In this document: positions 1 to 59,757 of the stretch, piece after piece
Position numbering within the stretch: the first letter of the stretch is position 1
Layout: each line of letters opens with the position of its first letter
Sequence record: NZ_CP040393.1
DNA length: 64,000 bases
Source: a plasmid
Reading direction: 5' to 3' (one strand)
Position numbers and translations under genes: made by a program
The notes under the pieces: generated by a model
The model's input: only the letters and a program-made list of their open reading frames with translations
The model's database searches: none
What the model was told of the DNA's origin: nothing

Positions 1-1
1 A

Positions 2-295
2 ATGGCGAAAAAACCGCTGGCCAGACCCAGCATAGAGAAACCGGCCGCAGCAGAAAATGGTGAACGCCAGAAACTGACGAACCTGAGTGTGACCAAAAAA
101 CGGACCACATCCGAAACACCAAAAACGGTTCGTATGACCGCTGCCGAGAAAATGATGGCACAGGAACTGGTCGAGCAGATCCAGGCGCTGACCAGTAAAA
201 ACATAACCGTCTCAACACTTCTTCGGGCTGGCCTTTATCTGGCGCAGAATTCAGGGCCTGAAAAAGTATTAAAAATAATTAAAGAAAACATATAG
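2..295 (+). CDS. C-terminal fragment of a protein truncated by the window start (97 aa visible); function unknown
   Basis: The ORF runs from the window edge to a stop at 295. It is followed by an AT-rich hairpin terminator. No motif recognised. Confidence 0.3.
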   Translation: MAKKPLARPSIEKPAAAENGERQKLTNLSVTKKRTTSETPKTVRMTAAEKMMAQELVEQIQALTSKNITVSTLLRAGLYLAQNSGPEKVLKIIKENI

Positions 296-333
296 TTAAT
301 ATTTGTGTATCTGGTTATTGTCTGAAAATACCT

Positions 334-365
334 CAAAAAAAAGCTCTTCAATTGAAGAGCTTTTT
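334..365. terminator. Bidirectional rho-independent terminator-like hairpin
   Basis: aaaaaaaagctcttcaattgaagagcttttt is a perfect stem flanked by A- and T-runs. It lies between convergent ORFs ending at 295 and 378. Confidence 0.6.
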
Positions 366-377
366 AACTAATCATTA

Positions 378-1031
378 TTATTTTACTTTATGAGTTAGTC
401 TGCGATTTCTGACAAGCTTTGGTAAGGTTTTCGTATTGTCAGGTTTCAGCATCATTGGAAAAACAGCATAACCTGTTTTACCGAGTTCATCATGAACGGC
501 CACAATTGTAGCTTTAATTCTGTTTACGTATAAATCACGGACAGAAAGATTATTGCCTCTAAAAGGACTGACTTCATAGTCCTGTTCTTTTACATTTGTA
601 ATATCAACTAGCTTCATGTTATCAGAAACGTAGTGAAATTCATTAATCAAATGGTATGGTAAAGCATCGCCTGACGAAATATCGTAAGCAGACGATGATT
701 TTTTCCCGTGTTCTTTCAGACAGGATAACTTTGTTTTCAAGATATCATTGGATTTAATAATATTATCCATATGAACTACAAGATTAACAAGCTCAGCCTT
801 GCTCGGTTCTGGATATTTTACCCAACATTTGACAGCTTCGCGCCTCCCGGCGTCAGAAACTTTAATGGAGGGTCTATCCTCAGGACCAAAAACGGCCAGC
901 GTAAGATCACGAGCAGCACTGTCAGCAGCTCTATCAAGTATGGCCTTACCTTCTTCGGTCAGGCTGCCTCCGAACAGATCCCTCAGAGACTTCACTTTTT
1001 TCTGAGCTAAATCTTGATTATTCAGCGACAT
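378..1031 (-). CDS. Hypothetical protein (217 aa), second gene of an AT-rich two-gene module
   Basis: Long ORF in a ~33% GC segment, 30 bp downstream of the kinase-like gene on the same strand. No recognisable motif. Confidence 0.5.
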   Translation of the reverse strand: MSLNNQDLAQKKVKSLRDLFGGSLTEEGKAILDRAADSAARDLTLAVFGPEDRPSIKVSDAGRREAVKCWVKYPEPSKAELVNLVVHMDNIIKSNDILKTKLSCLKEHGKKSSSAYDISSGDALPYHLINEFHYVSDNMKLVDITNVKEQDYEVSPFRGNNLSVRDLYVNRIKATIVAVHDELGKTGYAVFPMMLKPDNTKTLPKLVRNRRLTHKVK

Positions 1032-1060
1032 AAATACCTCCCGTCCAGTTCATAGTATAA

Positions 1061-1807
1061 TTATACAGCAATCCTGGCCAAATCTGAAGCCGAGTACTGA
1101 AATGGCACAAGCGTGTCAAGGGTGGAGGCAGCGATATTTTCAATTATCTCTTTAGAGAACCTGTCCTGCCCATGAATTTCTGAATATATAAAAGCACGAC
1201 AGCGCAACGCTTTACCCTGAAATTCAGGGTGACTCAGCACGGCTTTAATGGTCTGCCTGACACTGAAAAAGTTAGTGCAGAAGACATGTGGAAGTATTTT
1301 TCTGTCACGGTTCTGCGCATGTTTCCATGCAGATACGGGATCAAGATACACATAATTAATCTGAACTGCATATCCTTTTTTCAGTGCCCTGGAAACATTC
1401 CTGATGGCTGTTTCCTCATGCGCAAAATTTGTGTCGTGTATAATATCAAATTTGCCTTTTATTGCCTTATCAAAACAATGTGACAGGATGCCAGTACACG
1501 CTTTCTGGTAATCATGAGCATTTTCGCCATTATAATACGGGAAAAGTACTCTGAACTGGTCAGGGTCAATATGTACTGCATTAGGGAATTCCTCTAATAT
1601 CACCTTTACTGTTTCGCTTTTACCACATGCTGGCGCACCGGCAGTAAACATTATTACTGGTTCACCGGTGCTAACCTTATTAGCAGTCAGCGCATTAAAA
1701 ACATCGTCTTTAATATAAGCTGCGACGTCTAAGGAAAGATTTTTTATTTCTTCTTTTTTGTTATTTATTATTTTATCTAATAAAACCTTATACTGGCTGG
1801 AGTCCAT
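1061..1807 (-). CDS. P-loop NTPase/kinase, zeta-toxin / AAA_33-like (248 aa)
   Basis: Walker A motif FTAGAPACGKSE at ~residue 55. Walker B-like hhhhD follows (DIIHDTNF). The size and layout match zeta/PezT-type small-molecule kinases. The region has low GC. Confidence 0.55.
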   Translation of the reverse strand: MDSSQYKVLLDKIINNKKEEIKNLSLDVAAYIKDDVFNALTANKVSTGEPVIMFTAGAPACGKSETVKVILEEFPNAVHIDPDQFRVLFPYYNGENAHDYQKACTGILSHCFDKAIKGKFDIIHDTNFAHEETAIRNVSRALKKGYAVQINYVYLDPVSAWKHAQNRDRKILPHVFCTNFFSVRQTIKAVLSHPEFQGKALRCRAFIYSEIHGQDRFSKEIIENIAASTLDTLVPFQYSASDLARIAV

Positions 1808-2269
1808 ATCTCTGATTCACCTTATAAGGAGCATTCGATAAGTCTAACACAGGTCCTGGTATGACTTCATCTCTTCAGCTGACAGCGCACAGGTTCTATA
1901 GTGCACTGATCCATCTTTCCGTTTTCTGTTATTTCCGGCAACCGGGTCGTGCTCGCGTTTTTTCGCGCCGGGCCACTACATCTTGTGCCTTCTCCTCCCC
2001 GTTTACACTTCATCCAGGCAAAAAGGATCCCGGGCGGATCCTTTTCCGATCCCCCTGCCAAAAAACTTCTTTCCGTTTTATGGTATATTTCCGGAAACCG
2101 GAAATTCAGCGCGCACCGCTCAGCGGGTTTTTTCAGTGGCAGCCGGACGCCGGAGTGGCGAAAATAACGCCATACCGTAACCAGATTGCGCTACGTGAAA
2201 AACAGACCGGCGGCAGGGGGATTTCCCGCCAGATTTCACGCAGCGTCATCTTCCCAGTAGTGAGGGTTA

Positions 2270-3046
2270 ATGAATCAGCTGACAGTCCATTCTGCCCACC
2301 CCGCACACGCGGGTGATCCCTTCCCTGCCCCGTTCGATTACGGGCGGGCACTGGCGCTGCGCGAAATGGCGCGGCACTACACGGACCTGCCCCGCTACCT
2401 GCTGGCGCCGGAAATTGCAGCCCTGCTTCACTACCTTCCTGACTGGAGTCAGCACGCCCTGATTAACACCCTCTGGAACACCGGCGGGCGCATCAACGAA
2501 GTGCTGGCGCTGCGCCGGCGTGACTTCCACCTTAATGATGACATTCCGCATGTGGTGATCCGCACGGCCAAGCAGAGACGTGCCGGTGGCGGGCGCCCGA
2601 AGAAAGGCAAAAGCGCCAACCGCGTTGTCCCGCTCTCCGATCCGGTTTACGTGGACGAAATGCGCCGGCTGTTCGCCAGCACGAAAGAGCGTTTTGAGGA
2701 TGACGTCGTTACCGGTGAGCGCCGCGCACTGCCGGTGTGGGGGGTCTCCGATCGTACCGTGCGCAACTGGCTGAACCGCGCGGTCGATGCCGCCGGACGC
2801 GACGGGGTGTTCTTCAGCACCGAGATTTCGCCGCACAGTTTCCGGCACAGTTTTGCCATGCACCTTCTCTATGGTCATGTGCACCCGAAGATCCTGCAGG
2901 GACTGATGGGACATGAAAAATTTGAGTCGACCGAAATTTATCTGCGCATTTTTGCGCTGGACGTGGCCGCCGGTCAGCAGGTCCGGTTTACACTGGAGGC
3001 TTCCGCTGCCGTCGCGCTGCTGCGTAACCGCCCTTCTTCCCAGTAA
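2270..3046 (+). CDS. Tyrosine site-specific recombinase, ResD-like plasmid resolvase (258 aa)
   Basis: C-terminal catalytic signature HSFRHSFAMHLL...GH...TEIYL (R..H..R..Y). It sits next to the RepFIA replicon as resD does in F. An RBS is present. Confidence 0.8.
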   Translation: MNQLTVHSAHPAHAGDPFPAPFDYGRALALREMARHYTDLPRYLLAPEIAALLHYLPDWSQHALINTLWNTGGRINEVLALRRRDFHLNDDIPHVVIRTAKQRRAGGGRPKKGKSANRVVPLSDPVYVDEMRRLFASTKERFEDDVVTGERRALPVWGVSDRTVRNWLNRAVDAAGRDGVFFSTEISPHSFRHSFAMHLLYGHVHPKILQGLMGHEKFESTEIYLRIFALDVAAGQQVRFTLEASAAVALLRNRPSSQ

Positions 3047-3066
3047 AGTTGGCTCAAGGAGTATTT

Positions 3067-4299
3067 ATGTCCACCTGGACCGGTATTGATGTCGGGGAAT
3101 TTTCCCTCCACGAAGTGCAGAATAACTGTGATACCTGGTTTTTCCTGCCCAAAGACCGGGTCAGGGAAATAAATCATGACGGCAGCAGGCAAATAATTCC
3201 TGAAGGGTCCTTTATTGGCTACCGGGCGACGGTCGGCCAGATCCGCCGACGCATGGCCCTGCAGGGCTATGATATGACCACACTGGAAATTCACTTTACT
3301 GACCAGCTTGAAATTGCCGTTGCCAGTCTGCAGTCTCAGCTGGACGAGGCTTTGTCACTGAACGGAACGGACTCCTATTACGGGAAAATTACCCCTTATC
3401 TGGAAAAAATGCGCGATGCCATTACCGGCACCACTCTCAGGGACTGGCTGAAAATGCTTCACTTAGCCAGGTCATGGCCAGATGGTGGATTTGGGGAGCA
3501 ACGCTGGCGCGAAACAGAATCGCCTCTTCTCTCGGCGATGATAAGTAGACCTTTCTTCGATTCTCCGTACCGTTCAGATGGATGTTATAACTTCCCGTGC
3601 AGCGACGAATGCTTTTATGACCTGGCGGTTCTCAGCCTCTACAGTGACGACACCCCGTGCGAACTGGACATCACAGAGCTGGTGCTGAACGAATATGTGG
3701 AGGACTTTCATGACCTGGAAGAAATCAGTGCCAGTGCGACGCGCCCCTGCCGAAGCGTAATGGCCTCCCTCGATGACTTTAAATCGCTCTCCGACAGCGC
3801 CCCCCGGAATCTGGCTCTTCAGCGAATGTGTTACTCGAGCATCATTACCGCCCTGGAAGCTTATCTGTCTGACATTATGAAACGCTCTGTCAAGGAGAAT
3901 GCCGTTAAACGCAGGTTCGTTGAACGGTACAAACCTTTTAAGAATGATACCAAGCTGGATCTCTCCAGCCTGTTCATTACGCTCGATAAGATAGACAGAC
4001 TGATTGCCAATGCTCTGGATTCGATTCTGTATCATGACCTTGAAAAGGTCAGAGGAATTTTTAAAGATGTTTTACTGGTTTCTTTTCCGGAGCAAAATCG
4101 CTCGTTTCTGAACCGTGCGGTCCAGCTGCGTCACGATATTGTTCACCGCAACGGCAGAAACACCGCCGGTAAAGAGGTTCCCGTTGGGCATCAGGACGTC
4201 ATTCAGCTCGATAAGGCAGTCCGTGAGTTCATCGCTTCTGTTGATGGTCAGATCCTTGATAGTTTGAGGTTGCCGGACGCAGAGAATACACAGGGATGA
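3067..4299 (+). CDS. HEPN-motif protein (410 aa from the ATG with a perfect SD; the ORF is open from 3049)
   Basis: aaggag is 6 nt upstream of the ATG at 3067, immediately after the recombinase stop. A C-terminal R-x4-H motif (LRHDIVHRNGRN) sits in a helical context typical of HEPN RNase domains. The N-terminal 300 aa are unassigned. Confidence 0.55.
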   Translation: MSTWTGIDVGEFSLHEVQNNCDTWFFLPKDRVREINHDGSRQIIPEGSFIGYRATVGQIRRRMALQGYDMTTLEIHFTDQLEIAVASLQSQLDEALSLNGTDSYYGKITPYLEKMRDAITGTTLRDWLKMLHLARSWPDGGFGEQRWRETESPLLSAMISRPFFDSPYRSDGCYNFPCSDECFYDLAVLSLYSDDTPCELDITELVLNEYVEDFHDLEEISASATRPCRSVMASLDDFKSLSDSAPRNLALQRMCYSSIITALEAYLSDIMKRSVKENAVKRRFVERYKPFKNDTKLDLSSLFITLDKIDRLIANALDSILYHDLEKVRGIFKDVLLVSFPEQNRSFLNRAVQLRHDIVHRNGRNTAGKEVPVGHQDVIQLDKAVREFIASVDGQILDSLRLPDAENTQG

Positions 4300-4414
4300 C
4301 AAAAGAATTCCACACGTAATACATTTAGAATACAAATAGATTACTTGTGTGTTCGTAAAATATTCTGTGAGCCGCTCTATCCCTGTTAATTACAGATTGA
4401 TTACGGCATAAAGA

Positions 4415-5515
4415 TTGGATTGGAATATGAATGATAATAATGAGGACGATTGCCAGGCACCGGAACTGTCTCCTGAAGTCGTGACGCTGATAAACAATGG
4501 CATGGCCTTTCTGGAAAAGGCCATCAGTGAGGTAAAGACCGCGCCTAAGTTTTCAGTCGTCAGTTTCTGGACGGCAGTGGAAATCATGCTGAAAGTGCCG
4601 CTGGCACAGGAGCACTGGACGCTCGTCTGCAGCGGCCGGAATATCAGGCGCAAAGCCTATCTGACCGGCGATTTTCAGTCGATCACCTTCCAGGAGTCCT
4701 GTGAAAAGCTCCGGGATGTTCTGGAAAAGCCGGTTCCTCAGTCAACCCTTACTGCATTTGATGTTGTACGCAAACACCGCAACCGTGTAGTGCATTTCTT
4801 TCATGATGCTTATACCAAGGAAGATATGAACAAACTTCTGACAGAGCAGGCCAACGCCTGGTTTGCCCTGAACCGGCTGATGCGGGATGACTGGAAAGAC
4901 CTTTTCGAGGGGGCGCTTGGAAATCTTCTGGCCATGAATGAAACACGCCTGCTGACACAGAATAAATTCTATGCCGCGAAGAAGTTCGAGCAAATTAAAG
5001 ACGACATCAAGGCATACCGGGAAAATGGCGACCGCATAACAAGATGTTCTGTCTGTAAACAGCGGGCTGTAGTCTGGGAGACAATAGCTGAGCATGATGA
5101 TCGTGAGCTTAAATCAGGAAAATGCCGAGTTTGTACTGTTTCTTTAGATCGAACACTGACTTTTGCCTGCCCGGAGTGCGGTAAACCCCAAACTATAGGT
5201 CCCGATTGTGATGCAACCTTCCAGTGCTCAGCGTGCGGTCACCCAGATAATCTCTACAATCTACTCGATACCTCCTCCTACAGTTTCGACGATATTGCCA
5301 CTTCATATGTCCCTGCAGGATGCTGTGAATGTGATAGTTATGATGCTGTCTGCGAATTTGGTGACGGTTTCCTTTGCACTTCCTGCCTGGCATATTTCGA
5401 TGAACTGGAGCAGTGCGGATACTGCAGCTATTACAGCAGTGAGGTTCGTGAATTCAGCTCGATGGGTGGATGCAACTTCTGTGATGGGCACCGGGAAGCA
5501 TGGGATGATGATTAA
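4415..5515 (+). CDS. HEPN-motif protein fused to four CxxC zinc-ribbon pairs (366 aa)
   Basis: R-N-x3-H motif (VRKHRNRVVHFFHD) at ~residue 120. The C-terminal ~160 aa contain eight CxxC pairs (CSVC, CRVC, CPEC, CSAC, CCEC, CTSC, CGYC, CNFC). Confidence 0.55.
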   Translation: MDWNMNDNNEDDCQAPELSPEVVTLINNGMAFLEKAISEVKTAPKFSVVSFWTAVEIMLKVPLAQEHWTLVCSGRNIRRKAYLTGDFQSITFQESCEKLRDVLEKPVPQSTLTAFDVVRKHRNRVVHFFHDAYTKEDMNKLLTEQANAWFALNRLMRDDWKDLFEGALGNLLAMNETRLLTQNKFYAAKKFEQIKDDIKAYRENGDRITRCSVCKQRAVVWETIAEHDDRELKSGKCRVCTVSLDRTLTFACPECGKPQTIGPDCDATFQCSACGHPDNLYNLLDTSSYSFDDIATSYVPAGCCECDSYDAVCEFGDGFLCTSCLAYFDELEQCGYCSYYSSEVREFSSMGGCNFCDGHREAWDDD

Positions 5516-5667
5516 TTATTAAGCCAAAACTTCAGCTGATATCTGGGGTGGGTTCGACTACAAAAGAATTACATATGAATTACTTTTGTATTTCAAAAGC
5601 AATCTTTTCTTGAATCGCCACGGGTTTAACAGACACCTCGGAGTCATTTAAGATGACTTAAAGAGAG

Positions 5668-6090
5668 GTGCCTATGAGCGGTAAGCGTTATCCCGAAGAG
5701 TTTAAAATTGAAGCAGTCAAACAGGTTGTTGATCGTGGTTATTCTGTTTCCAGCGTTGCAACACGTCTTGATATCACCACCCACAGCCTTTACGCCTGGA
5801 TAAAGAAGTACGGTCCGGATTCTTCCACTAATAAAGAACAGTCAGATGCTCAGGCTGAGATCCGCCGTCTCCAGAAAGAGCTGAAGCGGGTTACCGACGA
5901 ACGGGACATATTAAAAAAAGCCGCGGCGTACTTCGCAAAGCTGTCCGACGGAGGTACGCCTTTATCCGTGACAACACCTGTTGCTGGCCTGTTCGCCTGC
6001 TCTGTCGGGTGCTGGATGTTCATCCCAGTGGCTTTTACTCCTGGCTTCAGCAGCCGCATTCACAACGCCATCAGGCAGACCGGAGACTGA
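5668..6090 (+). CDS. IS3-family transposase OrfA (HTH)
   Basis: N-terminal HTH, leucine-zipper region, and the slippery site ttaaaaaaag near its 3' end. Confidence 0.8.
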   Translation: MPMSGKRYPEEFKIEAVKQVVDRGYSVSSVATRLDITTHSLYAWIKKYGPDSSTNKEQSDAQAEIRRLQKELKRVTDERDILKKAAAYFAKLSDGGTPLSVTTPVAGLFACSVGCWMFIPVAFTPGFSSRIHNAIRQTGD

Positions 6091-6821
6091 CAGGACAGAT
6101 TAAACAGTTCTGGCTGGAGTCGGGATGCGTCTATGGTTATCGCAAGATCCATCTGGATCTGCGGGACAGCGGGCAACAGTGCGGAGTCAACAGAGTCTGG
6201 CGACTGATGAAACGTGCCGGGATAAAGGCTCAGGTCGGATACCGGAGCCCGCGGGCACGTAAAGGCGAGGCCAGTATCGTGTCGCCCAACAGGCTCCAGC
6301 GACAGTTCAATCCGGATGCTCCGGATGAGCGTTGGGTAACGGACATCACCTACATCAGGACCCACGAAGGCTGGCTGTATCCTGCCGTGGTTGTTGATCT
6401 GTTCTCACGCAAAATTATCGGCTGGTCAATGCAATCCCGGATGACAAAGGACATTGTCCTGAACGCATTGCTGATGGCTGTATGGCGGCGTAATCCCCAA
6501 AAACAGGTGCTGGTTCACTCTGATCAGGGCAGTCAGTACACAAGCCATGAGTGGCAGTCGTTCCTGAAATCACACGGTCTGGAGGGCAGCATGAGCCGTC
6601 GCGGTAACTGCCACGATAATGCGGTTGCAGAAAGCTTTTTCCAGTTGCTGAAGCGTGAACGGATAAAGAAAAAGATCTATGGAACGCGGGAAGAAGCCCG
6701 CAGCGATATTTTTGATTACATCGAAATGTTTTATAACAGTAAGCGTCGGCATGGTTCGAGTGATCAGATGCCACCGACGGAATATGAAAATCAATATTAT
6801 CGACGGCTCAGAAGTGTCTAG
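6009..6821 (+). CDS. IS3-family transposase OrfB (DDE/rve core), expressed by a -1 frameshift fusion with OrfA
   Basis: Motifs ERWVTDITYIRT...VHSDQGSQYTS...NAVAESFF are typical of IS3-group OrfB proteins. Confidence 0.85.
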   Translation: MLDVHPSGFYSWLQQPHSQRHQADRRLTGQIKQFWLESGCVYGYRKIHLDLRDSGQQCGVNRVWRLMKRAGIKAQVGYRSPRARKGEASIVSPNRLQRQFNPDAPDERWVTDITYIRTHEGWLYPAVVVDLFSRKIIGWSMQSRMTKDIVLNALLMAVWRRNPQKQVLVHSDQGSQYTSHEWQSFLKSHGLEGSMSRRGNCHDNAVAESFFQLLKRERIKKKIYGTREEARSDIFDYIEMFYNSKRRHGSSDQMPPTEYENQYYRRLRSV

Positions 6822-7051
6822 ATTATCCGTGGCGATTCATCTTACGCACCAACTCAGATCGCCAAACACATTGTGATTGATGTCATGTATTCATTATGTA
6901 TTACATTAAAAATACAAAGATAGTACATGTGTAATTCAGAAAAAACGATAATATTTCTCATCGTTCTGTATCGACAAAAAGTAAGTAAACATACAAAAGA
7001 CTACTTCTGTATTACATATGTATTCAAAAATAATGCCTTAAGGAGCCAGTT

Positions 7052-8419
7052 ATGGAGATGGTTCGCAAAAATGCCCCGAGGGGGCTTCATGTACGTGATC
7101 TTACGTCCGATGAACGCAGGGCGGTCTTTAATGTGTTCGGCGGCGGCAAGCATAGTACCGCGAAGGAAAAAAAATTAGCGGCCGATATTTTGCTGGAAAT
7201 GGACAGACGAGATCTACTGCTTGCCTGTGACTGCATTAGCGGTGAATCACGGCCGTACAACAGTGAGGTTGAAAAGTCCTTCATTCGGCATCTCAAAACA
7301 TCGGCGCGGCATGAAAAAGGGTGCCCTCTTTACCATGTTAAAAAACCGGGCAAAAACCCGGGCGGCGATGACAACAGGAACGGTCAAATTGCACCCCTGG
7401 TTCCTGCAGGGCCGGACGAGTTGTTCACGCGTAAAACGTCCCCCGGTCAGGTGGGTGGTGGGGGGAGTGAAGAGGGGAGGCGTCACCGGAAAAAACTGAA
7501 ACCCGTTCCAGCCCTTGGACGGATAATGATGACCATTCTTGAAAGTTCGGGCATCAATAAAACAAGTATCCTGCCGGTAATTCCTCCCCCAGGCCTCACA
7601 GCTTCTCTGCAGGTTGTCTCACACTTCCTCGACTCATGGTTGCTCATCAATGGCCTGCCTGCCTCTCAATTTATAACCACGAAACCCTGGCAGACTGACC
7701 GCGAGCGCAAACACATACTGAACACAATCAAAAACAGTGGCCAGACATGGGGAAAAAATCGTGAACTCTGTACGGCCATGATCGGACTGGCCGGAAAAGT
7801 CACCCAGACTGACGTGACGTTCATGGTTAAAGGAACGCCTTACACATTTTCCCCGCTCGGTCGCACAAAAATATTCGGGGAAGGACTGCTCAGCGCCGGT
7901 ACGCGTGAACCTTACTGGGTGATACTGCGGTTTCGACAGGATGAATATGGGGAGGTTTACTGCGCTGAGGGTTATGCGCATCCCGCTTTCGATATGAATC
8001 TTCCGATCCCGGTCGACAGCGAAAAAGAACGGGCAACATTGAGGACGATACGCAAAGCAGCAAAATATGTATCGGAGCAGAGCGACCATCCTCCCAGTAT
8101 CAGTCTGGTTAAACCCCTTTTCACCGAAACAACAGAGATTGAGGGGAGCAAAGAGGAAGTGCATCCTGATTTTCTGCTGACGCTCAGGACTGACGAGTCT
8201 GGTAAAGAAATACCGTTAGTCATAGAGACGATGGGCTACGACTCTGAAGAATATGTGGAACGAAAAAGTGGCACACACAGGGCAATGAAAACCCTGGGGG
8301 CACTTCTGACCGATCCGCATGGCTTTCCGGCAAAGTCAGATACAACCTTCTATAGCCATCTTCTGAGCTGGTTTTTTAACCCATTAAAAAACATACAGTC
8401 GTCGGGAGGTCAAAAATGA
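7052..8419 (+). CDS. Hypothetical protein (455 aa), third gene of the HEPN island
   Basis: aaggag RBS. A glycine-rich linker (GQVGGGGSEEG) separates two halves. The C-terminal part has a weak PD...E-like pattern (PDFLLTL..PLVIETMGYD), which is not conclusive. Confidence 0.5.
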   Translation: MEMVRKNAPRGLHVRDLTSDERRAVFNVFGGGKHSTAKEKKLAADILLEMDRRDLLLACDCISGESRPYNSEVEKSFIRHLKTSARHEKGCPLYHVKKPGKNPGGDDNRNGQIAPLVPAGPDELFTRKTSPGQVGGGGSEEGRRHRKKLKPVPALGRIMMTILESSGINKTSILPVIPPPGLTASLQVVSHFLDSWLLINGLPASQFITTKPWQTDRERKHILNTIKNSGQTWGKNRELCTAMIGLAGKVTQTDVTFMVKGTPYTFSPLGRTKIFGEGLLSAGTREPYWVILRFRQDEYGEVYCAEGYAHPAFDMNLPIPVDSEKERATLRTIRKAAKYVSEQSDHPPSISLVKPLFTETTEIEGSKEEVHPDFLLTLRTDESGKEIPLVIETMGYDSEEYVERKSGTHRAMKTLGALLTDPHGFPAKSDTTFYSHLLSWFFNPLKNIQSSGGQK

Positions 8420-8454
8420 ATGATGGCAGCGCAGATACACGGCTCTTTAAACCC

Positions 8455-8790
8455 AAAGGGTAACTGTGACAAATAACCCTCAAATGCTCCCGGTCATGGA
8501 AGCGTGACAAACAGCCCTTAATCTTTATTCCATGCAACTATGGCAGACCAATGCTTTGTCTGGCGCTTGTTCAAAGGGTAATTTGTCACAAACAGGTGAG
8601 TCTGGTTGCAGCAAGTGTGACAAATAGCCCTCGACATCATTCGCAGAGTGACAAATCACCCTCAACATTTTCTGATGCCGTGACAAATTACCCCGAAGCA
8701 GGCAGGTAGTGCGCCAGTCCGCATCGAAAACAATCAGTTACTGGTGACAATCTGCCCTCAAATATGTGACAAACTGCCCTCAACATTTGG
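8455..8790. repeat. RepFIA incC-type iteron array (about 8 copies of the TGTGACAAAT-N-GCCCT motif)
   Basis: Repeated gtgacaaat(a/c/t)(a/g)ccct(c/t)aa units spaced ~30-45 bp apart, downstream of repE. Confidence 0.75.
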
Positions 8791-8795
8791 ATGCA

Positions 8796-9542
8796 TTAAA
8801 CTGCAGATACGTCACTGAAAGAAAAGACAATGTGCGACGTCTGTCGTCCTTTCTTCTTCTCAATATACGAAAGACGCATGGGAGTCCGGCTGTTAATTTC
8901 ATCAACGGAGGCCTGCAGGAAACGGCGGCGAAAATCCGGCATGCGCTGGTAACTCTGCGGAAGCTGGTATCGCTCCATCAGCCAGTCTACGCGAAGGGAC
9001 ACCACCCCCGAACCGTCAGGTTTACGATACTGACAAAGTGATTCATACAGACGCATCGCATAGGGATTGGTGATCTCTTTCGTTTCGCTCAGACGGAACT
9101 GCGTAAAGCGGTTCTGAAGACCTATGAAGAACGGAATGAGATAAGGGTTGATATGTACGCTGTAAACGCCTCTGGCGGGGCTGTGGGCGCGTTTGATGAA
9201 CCAGGGATAGGTTTCATAACCTTTCTCATCCCCGGAGTCTTCTTCAGGGCGATAGAAGACCACCTCTTTACCGGTAAACCCTTTAAGGGCCTGGCGAATA
9301 TCTTTACTCGCCTCAGCTGAGGTGAGGCCGAACGTTGAGGCATACTGGGCTACATGAATTTCGCAGATCCCGTCATGTTCCTGCAGAGTGCCATCGCTTT
9401 TTCGGATCTGGTCAACAAATAAATACAGCATACGCTTCTGATCACGGGAAAGACTGTATGCAGCTTCCGTCAGTTCGTTCGACTGAACAATTCGTGGACT
9501 GTTCTTGCGTTTTGGCTGATTGATCAGGGCTGTTTCGGTCAT
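8796..9542 (-). CDS. repE: Replication initiator RepE (RepFIA)
   Basis: The 248-aa protein is near-identical in motif content to F RepE ([38 protein letters not shown]...). It is flanked by iterons on both sides. Confidence 0.9.
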
Positions 9543-9554
9543 GACCTTTCCATG

Positions 9555-9735
9555 TTAAGTGTGACAAGTCCTGAGATTGTCACATTTATTCAAAGATAGT
9601 CAACCGACATGAATAAGCCTGTGATTCTGCTCTGTAACAGAGGGCAATTTGTCACAGGGTTGAGGGTGTTTTGTCACGCTTACGGCTGCCTGTTAAGGGC
9701 AGATTGTCACAGGCTAAGGGTGAATTGTCACACAC
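9555..9735. repeat. ori2-type origin: repE operator inverted repeat plus four iterons
   Basis: gtgacaagtcctgagattgtcacat is the palindromic operator. It is followed by four agggc(a/g)(a/g)(a/t)ttgtcaca iterons. Confidence 0.75.
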
Positions 9736-9832
9736 ACTACGCTGGGAGCTGCTCTGGCTCTGGGCCTACGGCCTGTCTAAAAAGGTAGATCTAAAAACCT
9801 TAGTAAAAAGATCTTATAAAAATAGTCAGTGG

Positions 9833-9842
9833 ATATGTGGAT
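9833..9842. promoter_or_regulatory. DnaA box next to the ori2 iterons
   Basis: tgtggataa is the reverse complement of TTATCCACA, in an AT-rich stretch. Confidence 0.5.
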
Positions 9843-10054
9843 AAAAATTTTCACTGCGCGGGGGGACAACATCGAAAGCAAAGGGCGGCTGCCGCGCCCG
9901 GCTCCTCCGGGCTTGCCCAACCCGGCACACCCGGACAGATAAACCCTGTCCAGCTGTACCGGGTTACCGGTTTTATCCTGTGCATGTGGTCAGATCGTGC
10001 CATCGCACGGCGTCCTGCCGTGCTTGTTAACGCACTGTGCCCGGATCACTCTGC

Positions 10055-10765
10055 TCAGCCAATACGGGCAAGGGGTAGTTCCTGCCAGCGTGTCGTGTAA
10101 GCCGGACTCAGCATCTCCCGTTTCATTTTCCATTGCGGGGCAATGCCCCGGCCGGCAAACCAGACCTGACCAAGCCCGGAATGATTGATCCCGTCAACAA
10201 CACTCATCAGTTCCTGACTGTGCGGGCGGGGAGGCTGCTCATCAAACAGGTTCAGCTGGGCAATGCCGGAACCACTGAAATCATTAAGCATGACCCCCGC
10301 CTTTGCATACCGGTGATCGTCGCGCCAGATACGCTCCAGCGCGCGGACAGCGGCCGCAATAATGTCCCGAGTATCCTGCGTGGCCGTCAGCAGTTTTTCA
10401 CTTGCCACGTTGCCGTAGTAGGGTTCAGTGGCAGAGAAGGGGGAGGTCTTGATGAAGACAGAAATATGCCGGCAGTACTGGCGTTCCCCCCGCAGTTTTT
10501 CGGCGGCGCGCTCTGCGTACTGGCAGACAGCCTGACGCATGGAATCATACGTCGTGATCCGTTCGCCAAACGACCGGGAACAGACAATCTGCTGCTTCGG
10601 CGGCGGGGCGTCCTCGAGCGAAATACAGCTCTCCCCGTTCAGGTCCAGCTCTGTCTCCACATAGTCCTGGGCGGGAGACGGAAAACCACAGGGCACCCTC
10701 TCCAGAAATAACGGCAGTCCAAAAGGCTGCCCGTCCGTTTTCGGGGTCAGCATTACCAGTTCCAT
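10055..10765 (-). pseudogene. umuD'-'umuC in-frame deletion fusion (N-terminal ~45 aa of UmuD joined to the C-terminal ~190 aa of UmuC)
   Basis: The N-terminus carries the UmuD motif VPCGFPSPAQDYVE..LDLN. The rest matches the UmuC C-terminal half (RSFGERIT...LNLFDEQPPRP...YTTRWQELP). Confidence 0.7.
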
Positions 10766-10789
10766 AACGCCACTCCTTATTTATAAATA

Positions 10790-10809
10790 TACTGTATGTA
10801 TAAACAGTA
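10790..10809. promoter_or_regulatory. LexA (SOS) box of the umuDC promoter
   Basis: tactgtatgtataaacagta fits CTGT-N8-ACAG. It lies 25 bp upstream of the fusion ORF start. Confidence 0.65.
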
Positions 10810-10879
10810 TATTTATCGATTTACTGAATGCGCAAGCGCATTCGGCATGCCGATGAGGAAGAGGTTGTTTAACAACCAG

Positions 10880-10992
10880 AAAAATAGCCAGATGAAGAAT
10901 GCAGAATAATTAAATACTCAATTTGAGTATTTTGTATTGCTCTTTTTATTTGGTTAGGTATTATTATTCTCAATTTGAGAAACGAGAAAGTT
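10880..10992. promoter_or_regulatory. parC-like centromere/operator repeats upstream of parM
   Basis: Repeated palindromic units actcaatttgagtatt / ttctcaatttgagaaa. Confidence 0.4.
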
Positions 10993-10997
10993 GCAAT

Positions 10998-11972
10998 ATG
11001 ATTAATATCTGCTGCGATGATGGTTCAACGAACGTCAAGCTGGCCTGGTTTGACGGTAATGTGCCGGAGACCCGCCTCTCGGCGAACTCCTTCCGGCATG
11101 GCTGGAAAGTGGCGGATTTCGGGGCCGGGGCATTCAATTATCAGATCGGTACCCTGAAATACACCTGGGACAGTGTCAGCCGTGATGCAGTGCCGACCAC
11201 AAACGTCGAATACCAGTACGGCGATCTGAACCTGCTGGCCGTACATCATGCCCTGCTGAACAGTGGGCTGGTACCCCGGGAGGTCACGCTCACGGTAACG
11301 CTGCCCCTGAGCGAATACTACGATCAGGACTGCCAGAAAAACGAAGTGAATATCCGCCGCAAACGCGAGAACCTGCTGCGGGAGATCGTGGTAAACAAGC
11401 GTGAACGCTTTGTCATCACCGATGTGACTGTTATGCCGGAATCCCTGCCGGCAGCTTTCACCCGCCTTGCGGAACTGAAGCCGGCACCCTCGGAAACCAC
11501 CCTCATCATCGATATTGGCGGTACCACGCTTGATGCCGGTGTGATTGCCGGTCAGTTTGACGATATCAGCGCGGTGCACGGCAACCCGTCTGTCGGGGTA
11601 TCGATGGTGACGCGGGCGGCTCAGGCTGCACTGCGGGCTGCCGACAGTGAAACCAGCCCGCTGATTGCCGATACTGTTATCCGTAACCGGAAAGATCGTG
11701 CATTTCTGAACCGCATCATTAATGATGGGAACAGAATTGATTATGTGACTGACAAAATTGAAGAAGCTATCGACACCCTGGGCTCTCAGGTCGTCAGCGA
11801 GCTGGCCAGACACCGGAACGTGAACCGGATTTTCCTGGTCGGTGGCGGCGCTGCCCTGATTGAGGCGTCCGTTCGTAAAGCCTGGCCCCTGTCAGCGGAA
11901 CGAATTGAGGTCATCAGCGATCCGCAGATGGCCCTGGCCAGGGAGATAGCCCGTTATCATCATGAGGGCTGA
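10998..11972 (+). CDS. parM: Actin-like plasmid segregation ATPase ParM/StbA
   Basis: N-terminus MINICCDDGSTNVKLAW is ParM-like. The ~324-aa size fits. It is followed by a small partner gene. Confidence 0.8.
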   Translation: MINICCDDGSTNVKLAWFDGNVPETRLSANSFRHGWKVADFGAGAFNYQIGTLKYTWDSVSRDAVPTTNVEYQYGDLNLLAVHHALLNSGLVPREVTLTVTLPLSEYYDQDCQKNEVNIRRKRENLLREIVVNKRERFVITDVTVMPESLPAAFTRLAELKPAPSETTLIIDIGGTTLDAGVIAGQFDDISAVHGNPSVGVSMVTRAAQAALRAADSETSPLIADTVIRNRKDRAFLNRIINDGNRIDYVTDKIEEAIDTLGSQVVSELARHRNVNRIFLVGGGAALIEASVRKAWPLSAERIEVISDPQMALAREIARYHHEG

Positions 11973-11974
11973 CC

Positions 11975-12652
11975 GTGCCTGCAGGCAAATACTCCTTTTA
12001 TCTTCACACTGACGACCGTACCGACATGCTGGCAGCCGGTACGCTGGAAACCGTCTCCCAGCCGCTGCGGGGAGAATTCATCCGCACGGCTGCCATTGCC
12101 GGCAGCGTGCTTTACCGGGCAGATAACCGGCTTCCGGGTCTGGTGACGGAGTTGTTTGACGGGCAGCTGCGGTATGGCCAGCTGGTCAGTCTGTTCGCTG
12201 CGCTGACCGGGCAGTATGACCGCGCGCTGTTTCCGCCGGCGGAATCGCTGCCTGGCGTCACGGGCGAGGCTTCCGGCCTGCCGGATAAAACGGATCGCCG
12301 GCGCTTCACGCTGTTATTACCCGACAGCACGGAGTCCCGGCAGGTGGCTGCGCTTCTGGAGGGCACCCCTTCCCGGCAGCGCGGCATGCTGCTGCGCAAC
12401 CTGATTATTGCCGGATTCGCGCTGCACACCCTTGACCCGCGCCTCCCGCGTCTGCTGGCCAGTATGCCGGTACCTCCCGGCAGCATTGAGGCGCTGCGCC
12501 TTCTGACCGCACAGGTTGCCGGCGTCACGGTTTCCGGTACCGCTGAAGGAGCGGCCGGGGACAGCGCCGGAAAAGAGGACAGACCGCCGGAGCAGGAAGC
12601 TCCGCCTGCTGAGCAGTCTGTGCTCCGTCAGAATATGAAAAAACTTTTTTAA
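11975..12652 (+). CDS. StbB/ParR-like partition adaptor (225 aa, GTG start), tentative
   Basis: It is translationally coupled to parM. The C-terminal part is Pro/Ala/Glu-rich. Assignment is by position only. Confidence 0.4.
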   Translation: MPAGKYSFYLHTDDRTDMLAAGTLETVSQPLRGEFIRTAAIAGSVLYRADNRLPGLVTELFDGQLRYGQLVSLFAALTGQYDRALFPPAESLPGVTGEASGLPDKTDRRRFTLLLPDSTESRQVAALLEGTPSRQRGMLLRNLIIAGFALHTLDPRLPRLLASMPVPPGSIEALRLLTAQVAGVTVSGTAEGAAGDSAGKEDRPPEQEAPPAEQSVLRQNMKKLF

Positions 12653-59168: not shown

Positions 59169-59757
59169 CGCCCTTTCCGTTCTCCTGCTCCTTTTCCCCC
59201 TGCTGGCCAGTGCCGGCGCGCGGGAAGAAATCGCCGCCATCGATGCCGCCAAAGCCACGCAGTCACAGCCCGTTGCCGGCACAGTGAAACCCGCCACGGC
59301 AACACCGGTGCTGATGCAGCTGCCGGACGGGCGGCGTGCCGATATGGCGGATTATGTGGTGGTGGTCTTCATGCAGTCCCACTGTCAGTACAGTGCGAAG
59401 TTTGACCCCGACCTGAAGCGCTGGGCGGATGAGCATCGTATCCGCGTGTATCCCTACACCCTGGACGGCGGCGGGGATGCATCGTTCCCGGTGCCGCTGA
59501 TACCGCGTAAAACCGACCCGGCATCGCCGCTGGCGGATGAAATCATGACGTTCTTTGGCAACGGTCTGCCAATCGCCACGCCGACGGCCTTTATGGTGAA
59601 TGTCCACACCCTGAAAGCGTACCCGCTGACGCAGGGGGTGATGGATATCACCACACTGGAAAACCGCTACGCCAGCCTGATTCAGGCAGATATGGATCAG
59701 GTCGACCCCCGTTCACTTCCTCCCATGCCGGCGAACGCACAGGTTACGCCGCAGTAA
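59158..59757 (+). CDS. trbB: TrbB-like periplasmic protein (DsbC-like; the CxxC motif is not intact)
   Basis: Signal peptide. 199 aa. Synteny. Confidence 0.5.
   Translation: MKSSALSVLLLLFPLLASAGAREEIAAIDAAKATQSQPVAGTVKPATATPVLMQLPDGRRADMADYVVVVFMQSHCQYSAKFDPDLKRWADEHRIRVYPYTLDGGGDASFPVPLIPRKTDPASPLADEIMTFFGNGLPIATPTAFMVNVHTLKAYPLTQGVMDITTLENRYASLIQADMDQVDPRSLPPMPANAQVTPQ

Follow-up and report, generated by a model that had tools for sequence, protein, structure and literature searches.

The region between a resD-like recombinase gene and the RepE-type iterons of a plasmid sequence (record NZ_CP040393.1; the whole stretch analysed, 64,000 nucleotides, is referred to as the window) is a mosaic and not a three-gene module. 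It consists of a gene for a predicted HEPN ribonuclease (RNase; gene 1), a homologue of the anti-phage defence gene HEC-08 (gene 2), an insertion sequence (IS) and a common plasmid backbone gene (gene 3, yagA; Table 1). Genes 1 and 2 probably represent two autonomous HEPN effectors that have repeatedly been kept together, a reading favoured because HEC-08 acts alone, gene 1 mostly occurs without gene 2 and the alleles of the two genes reassort. A protein annotated in a Kosakonia radicincitans plasmid matches the product of gene 1 at 100% identity, and the nearest PLSDB record is plasmid pML.JS2a of Kosakonia sp. ML.JS2a (L001 among the loci compared), which shows ~87% nucleotide identity and the same gene order without the IS. 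The region may be regarded as a cargo slot of an F-like (RepE/RepFIA-type) K. radicincitans plasmid, which would hold two separate single-protein defences of the HEPN RNase superfamily. In a preliminary description, most of what was seen in the sequence was correct, but the arrangement of the parts was misinterpreted; a region flagged there as unclassifiable resolves into named parts and should not be counted as a new type of system. Family assignments, folds, motif conservation, synteny statistics and the IS insertion were all computed in this study.

Judged from its sequence, gene 2 is a full-length member of the HEC-08 family. Its product matched the PADLOC model of HEC-08 (PDLC04162) with an E-value of 2.1e-147 (489 bits), residues 9-365 aligning with model positions 5-357 of 358, and the N-terminal part (residues 19-165) matched the PADLOC model of the DUF3644 HEPN domain (9.3e-63), a match that was absent from the local Pfam-A scan. 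A full-length match to the prophage family phrog_37794 (1e-132) was also found. The motif RKHRNRVVH and the eight CxxC pairs reported previously are present. The Rx4H residues are R122 and H127 (RNRVVH), both invariant in homologues, and the exactly eight CxxC pairs correspond to four putative zinc ribbons, whose 16 cysteines are conserved without exception among homologues of 52-81% identity; the protein also weakly matches zinc-ribbon proteins. The defence activity of HEC-08 and the dependence on the HEPN histidine are known from the work of others. HEC-08 (Hma-embedded candidate 08) was described as a single-gene anti-phage defence (Payne et al., bioRxiv 10.1101/2024.01.29.577857), which, when expressed alone from its native promoter in E. 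coli, cut plaque formation by orders of magnitude for at least two phages. Mutation of the histidine of its Rx4-6H motif (H128) abolished defence, and the HEPN toxin SO_3166 emerged as a structural match of the protein (same source). For gene 2, then, it is incorrect that the architecture fits no named family: the gene has a full-length match to a named and experimentally validated single-gene defence. Gene 2 shares with the published HEC-08 an N-terminal DUF3644-type HEPN domain, C-terminal zinc-ribbon-like repeats, a similar size (362 amino acids (aa) compared with 358 model positions) and the critical histidine, H127 here corresponding to H128 in Payne et al. The published copy, however, came from within a Hachiman (Hma) locus and worked as a single gene, whereas gene 2, known from sequence alone, lies on a conjugative-type plasmid backbone beside resD and forms a pair with another HEPN gene. 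In PLSDB records derived from the Prokaryotic Genome Annotation Pipeline, HEC-08 homologues are named 'hsdR' despite having no domains of type I restriction subunits; this label is probably a propagated misannotation.

Gene 1 is assigned, by its domains, to a family that has already been described and is known from computation. The N-terminal part of its product matched Pfam PF18871 (HEPN_Toprim_N; 51.9 bits against a cut-off of 25, residues 7-228) and the C-terminal part matched PF18735 (HEPN_RiboL-PSP; 36 bits against a cut-off of 28.4, residues 242-403). The motif LRHDIVHRNG is present as previously described, and its Rx4H residues, R355 and H360 (RHDIVH), were placed in a helical HEPN fold; the fold around this motif, which the preliminary description had left to structure prediction, thus came out as expected. 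Domain matches and homologue alignments identify both proteins as true HEPN-family members with conserved Rx4H motifs. The HEPN/Toprim-NTD1 domain is an alpha+beta N-terminal domain of ~240 aa that is fused to HEPN, Toprim or Mrr nuclease domains, and the proteins carrying it have been likened to abortive-infection proteins (Anantharaman et al. 2013, Biol Direct 8:15). Since this domain pair is found in Pfam and was described in 2013, the statement that no named family applies fails for gene 1 as well. Gene 1 has the same two-domain order and Rx4H motif as the NTD1-HEPN proteins (PF18871 + PF18735; 'HEPN/Toprim-associated domain-containing protein' at NCBI) and is predicted from its sequence to encode an RNase of the abortive-infection type, in agreement with the inference made in Biol Direct 8:15. 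The family has been described computationally only; the text of Biol Direct 8:15 does not mention a pairing with DUF3644/zinc-ribbon proteins, and a literature search found no experimental paper on the NTD1-HEPN family. A phmmer search that exhaustively covered 1.84 billion cluster representatives returned 1,335 matches to gene 1 at E <= 1e-3, only 43 of which reached E <= 1e-30, and these were mostly full-length; the two-domain architecture thus constitutes a small family inside a large HEPN clade.

HEPN domains of the PF18735 type also occur in the defence proteins PD-T4-2, PD-T4-5, PD-T7-3 and ApeA (review PMC10952713). Like the single-gene systems PD-T4-5, PD-T7-3 and ApeA and the two-gene system PD-T4-2, gene 1 joins a sensor domain to a HEPN effector, but its N-terminal domain is different, and because it matched none of the PADLOC 2.0 models at E <= 0.1, it is not a member of these families. 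A sequence-profile search of the PDB with genes 1, 2 and 3 gave nothing significant, and none of the three genes scored above the cut-offs in NCBIfam.

The distribution of the two families argues for their independence. Full-length gene 1 homologues in species-representative genomes were without a HEC-08-like gene nearby in 20 of 21 cases, and in the sole paired genome (Erwinia) the HEC-08 copy is frameshifted. Gene 2 is solo in ~60% of its sequence clusters, and paired and solo copies are mixed throughout the HEC-08 tree; co-occurrence wherever either family is found, as in an obligate pair, was thus not observed. A HEC-08-seeded scan of metagenomes and IMG/VR yielded 80 loci, and a gene 1 homologue was adjacent in 22 of them, so HEC-08 homologues are solo in most gene 2-seeded loci. 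The two genes also have their own array-bearing spacers. Alleles have been reassorted in both directions: gene 1 is 91% identical between loci L139 and L130 and 92% identical between L144 and L156, with gene 2 at only 56 and 58%, respectively, and the reverse is seen between L140 and L144 (51% for gene 1 and 83% for gene 2).

Solo copies of gene 1 were found in an Aeromonas prophage, an Idiomarina island with AbiH and PIN_12 genes, a mobile region of Shewanella, an integrative and conjugative element of Obesumbacterium/Pseudomonas and a toxin-antitoxin-rich island of Pectobacterium. A hidden HEC-08-like partner was considered for such copies and rejected, as a hidden Markov model built from 18 homologues recovered only the two known cases among all open reading frames (ORFs) of 32 gene 1 loci. 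All-against-all BLASTP of the neighbouring ORFs revealed no alternative partner of solo gene 1 beyond shared mobile-element backbones. Two genes next to solo gene 1, encoding proteins of 472 aa in Pectobacterium (L013, 7356-8774) and 446 aa in Obesumbacterium (L011, 4220-5560), have no Pfam or PADLOC matches and could be further uncharacterised defence genes.

Several observations weigh against two independent effectors, in addition to the lack of a PADLOC match for gene 1, and most of them would fit a single cooperative dual-HEPN system, in which genes 1 and 2 form a heterodimer with a composite active site or one of them senses for, or licenses, the other. Among PLSDB gene 1 homologues that have the N-terminal domain, a HEC-08 homologue is directly adjacent in 36 of 38 plasmids, the exceptions being K. 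oxytoca pCAV1752-111 and a Cupriavidus match at 26% identity with an uninspected neighbourhood. The two genes, previously noted as neighbours on this plasmid, are linked far beyond it: pairs are always on the same strand, occur in either order and have spacers of 48-134 bp among complete pairs, and the adjacency recurs across deep divergence (down to ~34% identity between pairs for gene 1 homologues and ~40% for gene 2). When HEC-08 homologues from the seeded scan were clustered at 95% identity, ~14 of 33 clusters were paired. Pairwise identities of genes 1 and 2 correlate across pairs (r = 0.78, Mantel p ~5e-4). A pair is also found outside the plasmid backbone, in a Cronobacter prophage where TIR and AbiTii genes are its neighbours. 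On the same backbone, the order is gene 1-gene 2 in Kosakonia and gene 2-gene 1 in Citrobacter plasmid pRHB30-C04_2 (L176). A Pantoea stewartii plasmid (L177, NZ_CP049117; 1118-6624) carries resD, a HEC-08-like gene, a gene 1 homologue, a second HEC-08-like gene, parA and parG; the two HEC-08 paralogues that flank gene 1 there are only 34% identical, and differential loss from such an arrangement could have given rise to both gene orders. HEPN RNases act as dimers. There are also earlier examples of operons that combine two distinct HEPN families, e.g. Bxe_C0808 with AbiU2 (Biol Direct 8:15). Nevertheless, a cooperative system, although the chief alternative, seems unlikely: HEC-08 alone provides defence (10.1101/2024.01.29.577857), gene 1 is overwhelmingly solo in representative genomes, paired and solo HEC-08 lineages are intermingled, the reassortment of alleles speaks against a tightly co-evolving interface, and each of the two genes retains an intact catalytic motif together with an upstream regulatory spacer of its own. 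We likewise find it doubtful that the pair is a previously unrecognised dual-HEPN cassette of Enterobacterales plasmids and prophages that would also be wired to the iteron circuit and fire at plasmid establishment or competition. The counts obtained in a promoter and terminator scan were not above the shuffled expectation, and the scan did not decide whether genes 1 and 2 are co-transcribed. The remaining interest of the region lies in the recurrent HEC-08/NTD1-HEPN pairing itself, in which a validated defence gene accompanies one particular unvalidated HEPN family in ~40% of sequence clusters despite changes of order and swaps of alleles.

The HEPN genes might instead serve the plasmid, by post-segregational killing (addiction) or by displacing competing plasmids. 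They adjoin replicon, resolvase and partition genes and are flanked by backbone iteron arrays which, in the closest relative, bracket the parA operon. The F plasmid carries ccdAB at the equivalent place. Ishtar proteins, which have an N-terminal DUF3644 or DUF4145 HEPN domain, cause rapid loss of RP4 (bioRxiv 10.64898/2026.07.06.735840), and they resemble gene 2 in being monogenic and in combining this domain with a C-terminal accessory domain. They are, however, host-encoded in Acinetobacter, and their C-terminal domain, compared with that of gene 2 by description only, is described as alpha/beta and not as zinc ribbons. Addiction or displacement is quite improbable here, as there is no antitoxin-like partner, HEC-08 has been validated against phages and members of both families are found in prophages and chromosomes as well. 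No MNT nucleotidyltransferase antitoxin was recognised among the ORFs and Pfam matches within 1-12000, and neither such a gene nor a small neutralising ORF is present in the 127-bp spacer or the flanks. The region thus differs from HEPN-MNT type II/VII toxin-antitoxin systems (e.g. SO_3166/SO_3165) in having no MNT or other antitoxin gene and in encoding large, multidomain proteins that are not minimal toxins. As for the three-gene module of the preliminary description, in which yagA would function together with genes 1 and 2, the three genes are co-oriented, genes 2 and 3 are both preceded by the shared 11-bp arrays, and the trio is syntenic in L001, L096, L130, L139 and L176. This module was nevertheless rejected and is hardly tenable, given that yagA is present in 1,346 PLSDB plasmids compared with 58 for gene 1 and 175 for gene 2, and that the IS lies between yagA and gene 2 in the window; moreover, yagA stands beside repE, sopAB or parA where genes 1 and 2 are missing, and the pair occurs without yagA in L015, L133-135, L177 and L179.

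The defence role suggested earlier falls in the right category, and for two autonomous effectors a common mode of action can be proposed. Each protein would be inactive as a homodimer, its composite Rx4H site being auto-inhibited by its own accessory domain, i.e. the zinc-ribbon tail in the HEC-08 homologue and the alpha+beta NTD1 domain in gene 1. We infer that a phage or another invader provides the cue that frees the RNase, which may then cut cellular or invader RNA and abort the infection; RNase activity of these two proteins, auto-inhibition within a homodimer, the triggers and the independence of the genes all belong to this proposal. The recurrence of the pair would reflect co-selection and co-transfer as a stack with complementary triggers, neither gene needing the other.

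The three co-oriented ORFs of the preliminary description were all recovered, and their location between resD and the iterons was borne out, repE following the iterons. The first two frames open at 3049 and 4415, respectively, and the likely starts are the ATG codons at 3067 and, from the alignment of homologues, 4427, not the TTG codons upstream. The ATG of gene 1 is located 20 nt past the resD stop codon, behind an AAGGAG ribosome-binding site. The resD junction is common to L001, L004, L176, L177 and L179, and the first cargo gene always begins 11-20 nt after the recombinase stop codon.

Table 1. Features between the resD-like gene and repE in the window.
Feature	Position	Strand	Remarks
resD-like tyrosine recombinase	2270..3046	+	Pfam Phage_integrase 1.4e-19; left border of the cargo slot
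Gene 1, predicted HEPN/Toprim-NTD1-HEPN protein	3067..4299	+	410 aa
11-bp iteron array, gene 1-gene 2 spacer	4285..4361	.	Overlaps promoter-like site 4296-4325; kept in related plasmids
Gene 2, HEC-08 homologue	4427..5515	+	362 aa; ORF opens at TTG 4415
Second 11-bp iteron array, immediately 3' of gene 2	5557..5611	.	IS entered at right edge
ISEhe3-like IS3-family element	5611..6839	+	orfA, orfB, inverted repeats, TCT duplication
Two more 11-bp iteron arrays, upstream of gene 3	6889..6943 and 6989..7043	.	
Gene 3, YagA/PF27227 (DUF1173-like) backbone protein	7052..8419	+	
RepE-type iterons (GTGACAAAT..CCCT)	8463..8790	.	Direct-repeat families; right border of the region
repE	8796-9542	-	Pfam Rep3_N + Rep3_C

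Genes 2 and 3 are not contiguous, as had been assumed, but are split by an ISEhe3-like element of the IS3 family that the preliminary description missed. The element is 1,229 bp long and contains orfA (starting at 5668; HTH_Tnp_1) and orfB (ending at 6821; DDE-type rve domain). It is bounded by perfect 13-bp terminal inverted repeats (TGAATCGCCACGG / CCGTGGCGATTCA) and flanked by a TCT target-site duplication (5608-5610 and 6840-6842). More than 2,000 plasmids carry IS3-family copies with 96-98.5% identity to this element, and pML.JS2a is uninterrupted at the insertion point. The element would have been inserted later than the cargo, downstream of gene 2.

Gene 3 is a yagA homologue, a conserved plasmid gene unrelated to genes 1 and 2, whose predicted product would have a zinc-binding N-terminus and a nuclease-like C-terminus. 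All 41 homologues analysed carry PF27227, one of them being 93% identical to gene 3, and one source names a homologue DUF1173; membership in PF27227 was judged from the annotation of these homologues, as the model itself is missing from the local Pfam copy. The PLSDB plasmids with gene 3, identified by tblastn, include 881 from Escherichia, and 1,196 are predicted to be conjugative; most of these matches are ~31% identical and annotated yagA. At this level, gene 3 is similar over its full length to YagA of hundreds of E. coli and Salmonella plasmids, including those of the IncI1 (R64) type. That yagA adjoins repE, sopAB or parA where genes 1 and 2 are lacking indicates that it is a backbone gene outside the HEPN module, and nearly all of the more than 1,300 plasmids that have it are devoid of both genes. 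The Gly-rich linker and the PD..E-like C-terminus noted earlier are present: the Gly-rich stretch was modelled as disordered by AlphaFold2 (predicted local distance difference test score <50 at 129-149), and a PD...ETM...RK motif (D373, E392 and K405) is conserved at the C-terminus, in a putative PD-(D/E)xK-like domain, matches to nuclease folds being weak. A set of four residues, C59/C61/H87/C91, is invariant among homologues. The nuclease-like C-terminus and this CCHC motif are proposed from the present analysis, and the parts of the literature on YagA/DUF1173 function that were retrieved contain annotation mentions only.

A fourth gene that follows yagA in pML.JS2a, encoding a 352-aa protein with no family matches, was considered as a further component and rejected, since it represents an insertion/deletion difference relative to the window and is missing from other plasmids. 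This gene (L001, 12987-14069) overlaps the yagA stop codon and is flanked by a ~17-bp repeat; the corresponding position in the window (8419-8440) lacks 1,047 bp.

The cargo between resD and yagA varies among related plasmids. The order gene 1-gene 2 is found in the window, L001 and L096, and gene 2-gene 1 in L176; HEC-08 alone precedes yagA in L150 and L153. In a K. quasipneumoniae plasmid (L004, NZ_CP084775; 3897-5737), HEC-08 is followed by a gene for a 214-aa protein that matches PDC-S67 (PADLOC, E 4e-38) and replaces gene 1, and the related plasmid L177 carries the gene 2-gene 1-gene 2' arrangement described above. The slot on F-like plasmids thus appears to collect defence genes (HEC-08, PDC-S67 and, nearby, a RES toxin), and the way in which it is filled bears on how plasmids move immunity between hosts.

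The AT-rich motif that was said to precede each of the three genes is an 11-bp periodic iteron, approximately AWTACWWWWGW (ATTACATATGT), which occurs in arrays of at least three units. The claim holds for genes 2 and 3 but not for gene 1, as there is no copy between the resD stop codon and ATG 3067. Strong arrays are present at only four sites of the window (Table 1); one more array near 59756 barely exceeded the threshold, and none passed in 20 shuffles. The iteron matrix was trained on these same copies, and this test is informative mainly for absence elsewhere. Equivalent arrays occur in the spacers around genes 1, 2 and 3 of related plasmids, and in pML.JS2a, where two of them are located at 4400-4476 and 5643-5689, arrays also bracket the operon of parA and a 97-aa ORF. 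They are rare at solo loci (1 of 88 for gene 1 and 5 of 58 for gene 2). The arrays are, from this distribution, a feature of the plasmid backbone and not of the HEPN genes; a DNA-binding protein of the backbone probably uses them as operators or as centromere-like sites.

Further differences from pML.JS2a were observed on both sides of the region. Beyond repE, a umuC-like gene (10055-10765, - strand) is cut down to its C-terminal 236 aa (IMS_C + DUF4113), and ~990 bp that contain umuD and the 5' part of umuC in pML.JS2a are absent from the window. On the other side of resD, the stretch 378-1807 stands where pML.JS2a has a DUF4145 gene. It contains a homologue of Zeta-toxin/AAA_33 P-loop kinases (1061-1807, - strand; E 7e-26), beside which no epsilon-like antitoxin was recognised, and then a 217-aa ORF (378-1031, - strand) with no Pfam match. 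At the left end of the window lies a 97-aa ORF (2-295, + strand), also with no Pfam match. Its homologue in pML.JS2a is the small gene that follows the type Ib parA (86% identity at the nucleotide level), and the ORF encodes a candidate ParG-like centromere-binding protein.

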